Assembly (NCBI GenBank): GCA_963700065.1
Contig: CAVOWJ010000007.1
Span: 786,637 to 850,636 of the forward strand
DNA from: an uncultured Acidobacteriota bacterium
GTDB taxonomy: Bacteria; Acidobacteriota; Vicinamibacteria; Vicinamibacterales; JAKQTR01
Length of the DNA: 64,000 nt
Reading direction: 5' to 3'
Position 1 is the stretch's first letter. Every line of letters begins with the position of its first letter. The notes under the pieces were generated by a model that did not search any database, had not been told where the DNA came from, and saw only the letters and a list, made by a program, of their open reading frames with translations. Shown in pieces: positions 289-9,347 of the stretch. The position numbers and the translations under genes are program-made.

Positions 289-1014
289 TCAATCCGACAT
301 TAGGTGAATCAGCTTTCCCTCGAACGGCTCGAAGGTGAGCCGATAGCGCCGGGTGCCGCGGGCAGATCGCAAGACGACCTCCATCCGCCACGACATGCGC
401 GGCTCGGCCTGACCACCCTCGCGGTACCGCCCCTCAAACTCCGCCGTCCATGTCGTCAGGGGCCCCCAGTGGGGCCCTAACGCCCGTAACCGTGGGAGCG
501 CCTGAGCGAGAAACTCCGCCCGATTCCAGGGTCCGAAGTGAGCCCCGGCCTCGCGCAGAGCCTCGGTGTCCTGCACCTCGGAAAAGTCCGGGTGCTGCCA
601 CAGTCTCTCGAGGAGTGCCATGTGACGGGCCGTGTTCATAAATGGGCCTGTCGCCGAACAGCGCCCGATCTTCCCGTCATCGTCGACGCGCTCTACGTTC
701 ACGGTCAGAAGATCCCGCTGGTCTGCATTGGTTATGGGCAGGATCGAATAGCGGAACACGGTCAGCGGCAGAGGCTCGATGTCGAAATACAGGTCAGACA
801 CGAGCCGCGCCCGGAGGTTCTGACCCGCCAGCGACGGGTACATCGCTTTGGCCAGCGCCTGCACTTGGGCCGAGGCATCGGAGCGGACCGGTGGCGGCTC
901 ACTCGCCGCCGGGCTCACGATCCTGCCAGCGAGGACGCACCCCGTGATGCTTACCGCCAGCAGGCCCCTAATGCGGCGGCGGTTTGAGCAGTCGGAAACC
1001 ATCATTCCCTCCAA
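289..1014 (-). CDS. hypothetical 241-aa protein with N-terminal hydrophobic segment; candidate cognate partner (immunity/inhibitor-like) of the upstream C-terminal module
   Basis: ORF track 241 aa. Hydrophobic stretch LLAVSITGCVLAG. The start overlaps the stop of the upstream gene by 47 nt. Clear but diverged paralogue of 3784..4509 (shared blocks AQVQALA.AMYPSLAGQNLRA, FGPWNR, RYRLTFEPFEGKLIHL). Confidence 0.65.
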   Translation of the reverse strand: MEGMMVSDCSNRRRIRGLLAVSITGCVLAGRIVSPAASEPPPVRSDASAQVQALAKAMYPSLAGQNLRARLVSDLYFDIEPLPLTVFRYSILPITNADQRDLLTVNVERVDDDGKIGRCSATGPFMNTARHMALLERLWQHPDFSEVQDTEALREAGAHFGPWNRAEFLAQALPRLRALGPHWGPLTTWTAEFEGRYREGGQAEPRMSWRMEVVLRSARGTRRYRLTFEPFEGKLIHLMSD

Positions 1015-7500: not shown

Positions 7501-9347
7501 CGGGGGCTCGCTCGCGGACGCCACCACCGCCCCGTCCACCTCATACTCGACCCGCGCCACCGTGCCCGATGTCGCCGACGCCGACGCCGCCAGCGCGATG
7601 GGCATCGAGGCCGGGAACACGGTCCCAGGGAAGGGGCTCGTCAGGGTGACGGTCACGGCAGGAGCGCCCGCAGAGATAGCGCTGCTCGTGGCGAGGCGAT
7701 GGAAGCTGTTGTTCGCGAAGAGCCGGACTTCGTAGGTACCGGTGTCGGCAGGCAAGGTCACCGTCAGCGACGCCGCCGAGAGTCCGGCGGCCGGCGGGGC
7801 CGTCAGGCCGTTCAGGTACTGCCACGTCAGCGGCGCCACGTCGGGATCACTCGCCCGGTAGAGTCCGATCCAGTCCGTCGGGTTGCCCGGGCCGCCGGTC
7901 ACCTGAAGGGCCAGAGTCGACGCCGGTGCACGGTGACGCCCGTCGGCGGAGTCGTGCCGTTGACGGCAATCGTTGCCGGGCTCGGGCTGACCGACAGCGG
8001 GCCACTCGCCGCCAACCGGTTGAACGTGTTCGCGGCGAACATTCGGATTTCGTAGGTGCCGGGCGTGACGGGCGCGAGGAACTGGAGCACGGCCGCCACG
8101 AGACCCTCAGCCGGAGGCATCGTGCGACCGTCAAGATAGGACCACGCGATTGGAGCGCTATCGGCGGCGGTGGCGGCAAACAGCCCCACCCAGTCCGACG
8201 GGTTGGCTGGCCCGTTGGTCAGCGCGACAGTCAGAGGTGTCCCTGCGGAAACGGTCACCGCCCCAGGCGCATCGACGCCGTTCACCGCCACGTGGGCGGA
8301 TGACGCCGGCACGGTGACGATGCTGCTGCTGGCAAGGCGCTCGTACGAGTTATGTGCATAGAGACGGAATTCGTAGTCGCCCGGCGCCGTCGGCATCAGA
8401 AACGACAGGGAGGCGTCGCTGGTGCCGGTGGCCGGCGGCGTCAACGCGCCGTTCAGATACCGCCACTGGAGATAGGCCGTCTCGGAGGCACCTGCGGGGT
8501 AGAGGCCGATCCAGTCCGTGGAGTTGCCTGGCGCTCCCGCAACGGTCACGGCGGCCACCGACCCGGCCGTGGCGGTCACCGGCGCAGGTGGCGTCACCCC
8601 GTTGACCGACAGCGTGGCCTGGCTCGGTCCCACAACGAGCGTCGCACTCACGGCCAGCCGCGCATAGCCGCCCCCGGCGAACAACCGCAGCTCGTAGGTC
8701 CCGAGCGAACTCGGAGTGAAGAACTGCAGCGTGGCGGTGGTCAGCCCAGCCGACGGAAGCGTCGTTACACCGTTGAGATACTGCCAACTGAGATACGACG
8801 TGTCCGCGGTGCCGACGGCGAAGAGGCCAACCCAGTCGCCAGGGTTTCCTGGCCCGTTGACAATCGTCGCCGCGATCGGGCTCGCCGGACTCATCTGAAG
8901 GGCGGCCGGGGGGACGGTGTCGTTGACCCGAATGGTCGCACTCGAGGGCTGCACGGTGATCGTGCCGCTCGTGGCAAGCCTGGCATACCCGTTCGCGGCA
9001 AAGAGCCGGACCTCGTACGTGCCCGGGCTCACGGGAACGACCACGTTGAGGGCGGCGCTGGCCAACCCCGTCGGCGGCGCGCTGGTGGCCCCGTTCAGGT
9101 AGTACCACACGAGGTACGCCGTGTCCGAGGCGCCGACGGGGTAGAACCCGATCCAGTCGGTCGTGTTCGCCGGCCCGTCTGACACCGCCACGCTCGCGAC
9201 AGAGCCTGCAGCCACTGAGACACCGGCTGGCGAATCGACGCCGTTCACGGCGAGGCGTGGCTGGCTCCACGCGGCCTGACCAGAGGCCACGACCGCCGAC
9301 ATCGCCAGCGCGAATCGAACGACAGCGACTTGCGACAAGCCAGACAT
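4463..9347 (-). CDS. giant secreted cell-surface protein (five DW[IV]GL[YF] repeats, chitobiase/Fn3-assoc-like, Ig-like/Big_2-like, beta-propeller-like, C-terminal His/Cys module); three frame disruptions
   Basis: Assembled from the sensible, abutting parts of ORFs 7899..9362, 6955..7902, 5193..7028 and 4463..5839. SD GGGAGG lies 7 nt before ATG 9347. Signal peptide MSGLSQVAVVRFALAMSAVVASGQA. Frame breaks lie near 7925 (reads GVTVH then should continue PASTLALQVTGGPGNPTDWIGLY), near 7038 (extra A relative to 3534) and near 5360. Confidence 0.7.
5071..7197. repeat. near-identical 2.1-kb direct repeat, copy 2 (partner 1567..3692)
   Basis: See copy 1. Confidence 0.9.

Follow-up and report, generated by a model that had tools for sequence, protein, structure and literature searches.

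The first part of a 64,000-nucleotide stretch of DNA from an uncultured Acidobacteriota bacterium (contig CAVOWJ010000007.1; the whole stretch is called the window here) carries a giant gene for a multidomain protein, a small partner gene at its 3' end and, behind them, further copies of the pair that lack the 5' part of the giant gene. Our tentative reading is that this locus encodes a secreted clan-CD-like effector and its cognate exported neutraliser, together with recombination cassettes. A giant Sec-exported multidomain protein would end in a domain with the fold of the clan CD cysteine peptidases (the tip), and an exported partner of about 240 amino acids (aa) would be translationally coupled to it. 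At least two promoterless, 5'-truncated cassettes repeat the 3' 2.8 kb of the big gene together with the partner gene. In one of them the 5' 2.1 kb are nearly identical; the other is older and has diverged. To judge from its modelled fold, the C-terminal domain may be an active thiol peptidase outside the cytoplasm, and the partner may be an immunity or self-protection protein that binds it in the envelope and neutralises it. Homologous recombination within the 2.1-kb tract could then swap the expressed domain and partner for the stored pair, either by gene conversion or by a 3,504-bp deletion that joins the stored tip and partner to the expressed gene.

The two repeat units were compared by global alignment, with an offset of 3504 between the copies. 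All relevant features lie on the minus strand, and the array is composed as follows.

4463..9347, minus strand: full-length gene of the upper unit, about 1,627 aa after conceptual repair of three frame breaks.

3784..4497, minus strand: partner gene of the upper unit, 237 aa from ATG (the open reading frame, ORF, has 241 aa from TTG 4509), with a hydrophobic N-terminus.

5071..7198, minus strand: near-identical tract, upper copy, residues ~723-1430 of the big protein, as aligned globally.

3713..3783, minus strand: junction from the stop codon of the upper partner to the start of the truncated copy, covered by the independent contig L006.

968..3712, minus strand: 5'-truncated copy of the lower unit, equal to residues ~723-1632, starting inside CHB_HEX_C_1 and having one frame break at 1850-1852.

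1567..3693, minus strand: near-identical tract, lower copy, from the same global alignment.

289..1002, minus strand: partner gene of the lower unit, 237 aa, 65% identical to the upper partner, with a lipobox-like ITGC.

~260..1 and past the window edge, minus strand: third, much more diverged 5'-truncated copy, with 35% identity to residues 1027-1095 and the motif VPWR[YW].

The initial annotation, made from the sequence alone, had described two tandem tracts as nearly identical, and the alignment bears this out: 1567-3693 and 5071-7198 differ in total by 3 substitutions (1701/5205, 1850/5354 and 1851/5355) and 1 indel (an extra base at 7038), with 98-100% identity in each 100-nt block. It had also rightly reported that the adjoining segments have diverged. 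Between 289-1566 and 3784-5070 identity drops abruptly to 51-86% per 100 nt, hundreds of substitutions separate the units within this 1.3 kb, and the net length difference is the 9 nt that had been given. The diverged segment codes, as proposed, for the end of the big protein, which we count as its last 199 codons, and for the downstream 241-aa ORF (237 aa from the ATG after the Shine-Dalgarno (SD) sequence). The abrupt beginning of the lower unit without a signal peptide likewise holds: sequence common to both copies of the big gene begins at 3693 and decays by ~3712, which is residue 723 within CHB_HEX_C_1, and neither an SD sequence nor a promoter-like site was found in the junction 3713-3783. 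The third headless copy starts directly after the lower partner and carries the VPWR[YW] motif of the family. Thus, the array has at least three units, with heads that become progressively shorter.

The duplication is real and not an assembly artefact, because the independent contig L006 crosses the junction at 100% identity. Three short-read contigs from read sets other than that of the window contig match the array. L006 is 100% identical to window 3664-5100 and runs from the upper partner across the junction into the truncated copy. In the lower unit, L004 matches 169-1545 with a single mismatch and L005 matches 108-1075 at 100%. Each of the three ends ~20-30 nt into the identical tract, as is expected of a k-mer assembler at a true repeat. 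That the second copy is a false duplication made by the assembler is extremely improbable. The window contig probably comes from a long-read metagenome assembly, a related metagenome-assembled genome (MAG) comes from the Nanopore-based Microflora Danica project (PMC12313526), and frame breaks occur in a neighbouring gene too, all of which would suit such an error. It is effectively refuted by L006, which covers the junction 3664-3783 and the entire upper divergent part at 100% identity, while L004 and L005 cover the lower divergent part with its hundreds of substitutions in 1.3 kb. The duplication, which the initial annotation had wanted confirmed, is thus upheld by these contigs.

The C-terminal domain was located in both copies as follows.

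4466..5170, minus strand: caspase/CHAT-like domain, upper copy, with the candidate His codon at 4922-4924 and the invariant Cys codon at 4727-4729.

971..1666, minus strand: caspase/CHAT-like domain, lower copy, with the candidate His codon at 1424-1426 and the Cys codon at 1232-1234; this is the sequence that was modelled.

The lower tip was modelled by AlphaFold2 with a 29-sequence alignment (predicted local distance difference test, pLDDT, 88.8; predicted template modelling score, pTM, 0.86). In a Foldseek search of the PDB, the best match of the model was SAVED-CHAT 8tl0 (E=7e-6, probability 1.0, template modelling (TM) score for the query 0.52). The further top matches were all of clan CD: caspase-11, the CHAT domain of DdvA (anti-sigma factor), caspase-6, legumain, gingipain R (RgpB) and separase. 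The predicted fold of the tip is therefore the caspase/CHAT-like (clan CD) caspase-hemoglobinase fold. The Cys of 'IVFIASC', which follows beta-strand 139-143, is invariant in 29/29 family members, and the candidate His of 'VVAFIGHS', which follows beta-strand 75-79, is present in 26/29. At the sequence level, the window tips gave no match at E<=0.1 to Pfam (CHAT PF12770, Peptidase_C14, C13, C25) or NCBIfam and no significant match in PADLOC or among PDB sequences; one of the 29 family members touches Pfam CHAT with E 0.15. A link to anti-phage CHAT systems was considered and rejected, because there was no PADLOC match and the protein is secreted.

A word-indexed homolog search with the tip recovered just the two window copies, and the family was recovered by an exhaustive HMMER profile search, which gave at least 173 cluster representatives (50% identity) at E<=1e-3. 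The module stands at the extreme C-terminus in all 173, in proteins of 200-4,127 aa. The members that were fetched have a common core of Ig, Big_2, propeller and module, and their N-terminal regions are adhesin-like and highly varied (TIG, SBBP, RCC1, Kelch, LamG-like). The only named relative is an Acidobacteriota MAG (L001/L007). The tip represents a previously undescribed domain family for which neither Pfam nor NCBIfam has an entry. Identity is 72% between the two window tips and 66-69% between these and the tip of the related locus L002. The boundary of identity between the two units lies ~33 residues inside the domain, after 'TPPVDP', a motif that is not conserved in the family alignment.

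The partner gene is embedded in the big gene: its SD sequence GGAGG and its ATG lie within the last codons of the latter. From a hydrophobic, signal-like N-terminus, judged by inspection, the partner appears to be exported. The Cys of the lipobox-like ITGC in the lower partner is not conserved. The AlphaFold2 model of the partner consists of two halves, each of alpha structure plus four strands. Its Foldseek matches were weak and non-significant (PepSY-like, monellin/cystatin-like, NTF2-like) and are not to be relied on. The partners matched no family in Pfam, NCBIfam or PADLOC, and their PDB sequence matches were at chance level (E >= 0.7). The initial annotation could not assign the domain families to any known toxin-immunity pair. 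The profile and structure-prediction searches it had recommended gave a clan CD fold for the tip, so that half of the statement no longer stands; for the partner it does, as no significant fold match was obtained.

The functional link between the big gene and the partner is most strongly indicated by synteny. A homolog of the partner lies directly downstream of the big gene, often overlapping it, in 5/5 distant loci that were read. In four of them it was detected by a hidden Markov model (HMM; L009, E 1.5e-14; L010, E 4.5e-20; L011, E 2.2e-23; L014, E 1.4e-25), and in the P0049 locus a downstream gene of 245 aa was taken as the partner by position only. In the window, L002, L009, L011 and L014, the 3' end of the big gene and the partner overlap. 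In L009, two tandem partner paralogs (5409-6511) stand behind a single big gene. The big gene of L009, in a short-read assembly, is also split within its SKICH-like repeats. Scans of genomes and metagenomes with the partner profile gave one locus from each. The two-gene module is conserved across a large, mostly uncharacterised protein family.

The evolution of the two units differs sharply along their length. The identical 2.1-kb tract has no synonymous differences (synonymous divergence, dS, 0), whereas dS between the upper and lower units is 0.68 in the tip and 0.92 in the partner; such a mosaic demands gene conversion or recombinational import and does not fit uniform divergence. The ratio of nonsynonymous to synonymous divergence (omega) is 0.31 for the tip and 0.31 for the partner, and it is ~1.1 in the first 40 tip codons past the identity boundary. 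Both copies of the tip and of the partner evolved under purifying selection. The 'spare' cassette therefore coded for functional protein during most of its divergence. The partners (65% identical) and the tips (72%) differ together, vs 100% identity in the upstream tract, so that the partner diverges with the tip. The closest match of the upper partner is P0005 (83%) and that of the lower one is P0004 (72%), vs 65% between the two window partners, and both P0005 and P0004 come from other metagenomes. Since each partner is nearer to one from another metagenome than to its neighbour, the cassettes represent distinct allelic lineages.

These data bear on a somewhat unlikely explanation, namely neutral segmental duplication with concerted evolution. 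Unequal crossing-over would have made the array, conversion of the 2.1 kb would have followed later, and the truncated by-products would be decaying without a role in switching. Frame breaks in both copies, one of them common to both, fit such decay, as do the lack of initiation signals in the truncated copy and the absence of truncated copies in the distant family members examined. In L001 and L002, moreover, all that remains of the copy downstream of the partner is an internal fragment of 540 nt from the big gene (residues ~1150-1334), fused to unrelated sequence. Against this explanation, the lower tip and partner are free of stops and frameshifts over 1.56 kb despite a dS of 0.7-0.9, and the omega given above indicates that selection maintained both copies. 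The affinity of each partner to alleles of other metagenomes points to imported or long-maintained alleles, and the identity boundary is very sharp.

The full-length gene had been called complete in the initial annotation. It does have an SD sequence (GGAGG) before ATG 9347 and a signal-peptide-like N-terminus after it, yet in the assembly its reading frame is interrupted three times. The breaks were located by analysis of third-position GC content (GC3) in the three frames and by translation, and they are given here with the only promoter candidate.

9458..9430, minus strand: sigma-70-like promoter match TTGACA-17-AACAAT upstream of the full-length gene, the sole such match on this strand within 1-9700 and a consensus match only.

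7929..7931, minus strand: frame break 1, -1, a base missing vs the repeat consensus 'GVTV-APAST'.

7038, minus strand: frame break 2, +1, an extra base in the upper copy only, which is the single indel between the identical tracts.

5354..5356, minus strand: frame break 3, upper copy, +1, an extra G in GCCGCCGG, beside codon GAC.

1850..1852, minus strand: frame break 3, lower copy, common to both copies, beside codon GTA.

Counted from ATG 9362, the repaired protein has 1,632 aa. From N- to C-terminus it comprises the signal peptide, five SKICH-like repeats, Big_7, CHB_HEX_C_1/Fn3_assoc, Glucodextran_B, a Big_2-like domain, a propeller-like region and the caspase-fold C-terminal module of ~235 aa. 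The Pfam families detected were SKICH, Big_7, CHB_HEX_C_1, Fn3_assoc and Glucodextran_B only. The SKICH-like repeats are in tandem (window ~7683-9260, minus strand), each of ~107 aa (321 nt), with the motif GP(G/A)N(P/S)xDW(I/V)GL(Y/F)...PG(T/D)YE(F/V/I)R(L/M)(F/Y). Their match to the eukaryotic-type SKICH is weak (E 1e-9, below per-domain reporting).

In L002, the frame of the ortholog stays open across the three sites, and its own single break lies elsewhere, at 7821/7823. The breaks in the window are therefore lesions or errors relative to an intact ancestor. Over ~2.9 kb of unique sequence the window agrees with the short-read contigs in all but 1 base and without indels, which points away from sequencing error, whereas the neighbouring BNR/Sortilin gene, which is likewise divided between frames, and the Nanopore origin of the related MAG point to it. 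No short-read-derived protein across a frame break was present in the database that was searched. In that neighbouring BNR/Sortilin-Vps10 gene (9669-12389, minus strand), a 906-aa ORF and an overlapping ORF at 10172-11560 both match Sortilin-Vps10, and GC3 changes frame twice, an observation that bears on indel errors in the assembly. The break at ~1850/5354 coincides with two clustered substitutions of the identical tract. This cluster (1850-1858 / 5354-5362) lies within a few bases of '...ALADGGAG', the end of the fragment that follows the partner in L001 and L002 (corresponding end points ~11147 in L001 and ~10502 in L002). This proximity could be due to chance, to a hot spot of recombination or to a systematic fault in basecalling.

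In L001/L007 and L002, the locus lies between rpoC and rpsL. It is inserted before the rpsL-rpsG-fusA-tuf ribosomal cluster (L001 1-20600, L002 9935-12788), an unusual place for a giant surface-protein gene. In L002, the block formed by big gene, partner and fragment has a direct repeat of ~106 nt on either side (4110-4215 and 10501-10606, 92% identical). The repeat looks as if the 3' end of an upstream gene had been copied to the far side of the fragment, and a weaker version is seen in L001. This suggests that a larger duplication or insertion beside rpsL either gave rise to the block or contains it.

Other loci have kept the partner and lost the enzyme. L013 (4223-5431) represents a strain of a different sample in which, compared with L002, the ~5-kb big gene is missing altogether and the partner is retained, along with the last 16 tip codons, which carry the SD sequence and ATG of the partner. 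L003 and L008 have intact partners with tip remnants of 83 and 54 codons, respectively, in unrelated contexts. Together with the tandem partners of L009, these repeated losses form a pattern of immunity genes that is hard to square with a dedicated chaperone or anchor.

Such a chaperone or anchor belongs to another explanation, which we consider quite improbable. The big protein would be an adhesin or enzyme of the cell surface, and its caspase-fold domain would work in cis or on substrates in the envelope (autoprocessing, release, transpeptidation). The partner would be its anchor, chaperone or substrate, and the truncated copies would be silent cassettes that vary a surface-exposed end, like those of pilE/pilS. 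Clan CD includes transamidases and ligases besides peptidases, which suits such activities. Surface proteins typically combine a conserved core with N-termini that are adhesin-like and variable, as here (TIG, SBBP, RCC1, Kelch, SKICH-like), and the cassettes lack a promoter and their 5' part. For large surface proteins, caspase-like domains have also been described that are likely to serve autoprocessing (PMC3482391). On the other side stand the partners that persist without the big gene in L003, L008 and L013, the paired partner paralogs behind one big gene in L009, and the divergence of the partner together with the tip. The array resembles pilE/pilS in having one expressed copy and promoterless, 5'-truncated copies with common conserved tracts. 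It differs in that each window cassette has a complete, separately translatable partner gene, that there are just two or three cassettes, and that their variable part is an enzyme-like domain.

The effector and neutraliser reading draws one of its closest analogies from polymorphic toxins. The initial annotation had proposed module exchange as in CdiA-CT/CdiI of contact-dependent growth inhibition (CDI) or in Rhs loci, where CT denotes the C-terminal module. The parallel in layout stands. As with orphan cdiA-CT/cdiI and rhs-CT modules, the window has a full gene and partner followed by promoterless, 5'-truncated copies that keep upstream homology, each with its own partner gene. The small downstream gene diverges with the presumed toxin end, as in CDI, Rhs and MafB systems, and the orphan modules lack initiation signals. 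Furthermore, the cassettes are of different allelic lineages, partner-only remnants occur in other genomes, and the homologous tract could mediate a deletion or conversion that alters the expressed end.

Equating the mechanism with that of these families is not supported. The tips belong to one homologous family (66-72% identical), whereas close relatives in CDI, Rhs and MafB systems carry, on a conserved N-terminal or central region, C-terminal domains unrelated in sequence and fold. The C-terminal region of the window protein is the conserved family core, the identity boundary lies inside the domain, and the partner is apparently exported. Among the Pfam matches of the window protein there was no TPS/FHA (two-partner secretion and filamentous haemagglutinin) with VENN, RHS/YD with PxxxxDPxGL, PAAR, LXG or MafB-N. 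Membership of CDI or Rhs was therefore rejected, because of the homologous tips, the conserved C-terminal core, the lack of trafficking and demarcation features and the position of the boundary. The locus possibly works like a toxin/immunity or protease/inhibitor cassette array without being a member of the CDI or Rhs family.

'Tox-Caspase' C-terminal domains of polymorphic toxins have been described (Zhang et al. 2012, PMC3482391), and the same paper assigns caspase-like domains to three roles: releasing peptidases, C-terminal toxins and autoprocessing domains of large surface proteins. By analogy, the present tip family could have a role as a C-terminal toxin or in autoprocessing of a surface protein. 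Like Tox-Caspase, SAVED-CHAT, DdvA, gingipain and legumain, the tip has a predicted caspase-hemoglobinase fold, in which the candidate catalytic Cys, and usually the candidate His, would come after a hydrophobic beta-strand, and it stands at the C-terminus of a Sec-exported multidomain protein. Unlike the clan CD peptidase families, it has no significant sequence match to them and the His is replaced by Asp in some members. It is also fused to the conserved Ig / Big_2 / propeller core and invariably paired with a specific, apparently exported partner of ~240 aa, which sets it apart from known clan CD peptidases.

Staphopain and staphostatin are a secreted cysteine protease and its dedicated inhibitor encoded in the same operon; staphostatins are cytoplasmic beta-barrels that inhibit papain-fold enzymes. 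As in that pair, the small partner gene in the window lies directly downstream of, and would be co-transcribed with, the protease-encoding end, and self-protection is the proposed role. Unlike staphostatin, the partner is apparently exported, is modelled as two alpha+beta halves and has no confident match to an inhibitor fold, and the enzyme is clan-CD-like.

Several observations weigh against the effector and neutraliser reading. No delivery apparatus or known toxin/immunity family was found with Pfam, NCBIfam and PADLOC, and no recombinant or deleted variant of the window array was seen. The partner model is of medium confidence (pLDDT 73.6) with no significant Foldseek match (best E 0.04). 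The candidate catalytic His is Asp in 3/29 members, also in the close relatives L001 and L002. With its three frame breaks in the assembly, the big gene may be a pseudogene here. In addition, the C-terminal region is conserved and the N-termini vary in this family, the reverse of polymorphic toxins, and the overall omega of 0.31 gives no general sign of diversifying selection.

Two other regions of the window were observed. Positions 56661-63000 (minus strand) resemble an extracellular contractile injection system (eCIS) locus: the ORF at 57008-60160 has eCIS_core and a C-terminal Ntox15 nuclease toxin domain, the ORF at 61433-62959 is a tape-measure protein of a contractile injection system, and the ORF at 60105-62705 has an AAA ATPase domain. 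Positions 41250-44612 (minus strand) encode a protein of 1,120 aa whose architecture is defence-like, with TIR_2 at the N-terminus and a KAP-family P-loop NTPase.

In conclusion, the locus is real and unusual: it varies an arrangement of known type, with a domain family and a partner family that both await description. Even under neutral duplication, the conserved module of big protein and partner is an unannotated system worth a family description. A wider interpretation, which we hold to be unlikely, is that the module represents an undescribed widespread two-gene system of antagonism and self-protection, so far in soil and sediment bacteria including Acidobacteriota, in which the domain attacks envelope or extracellular targets, the partner neutralises it, and headless cassettes and orphan immunity genes allow switching or resistance. 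If the effector and neutraliser reading is true, there would be a new caspase-fold family of at least 173 clusters at 50% identity, without a Pfam or NCBIfam entry and with an obligatory exported partner. The protease/partner pair would be directly testable with two natural variants within one genome. A cassette array would carry a protease-like effector, vs the usual nucleases or deaminases. Finally, the dynamics of cassette arrays, with orphan modules, partner-only remnants and allelic lineages that cross genomes, would extend to the Acidobacteriota, a dominant but poorly studied soil phylum.

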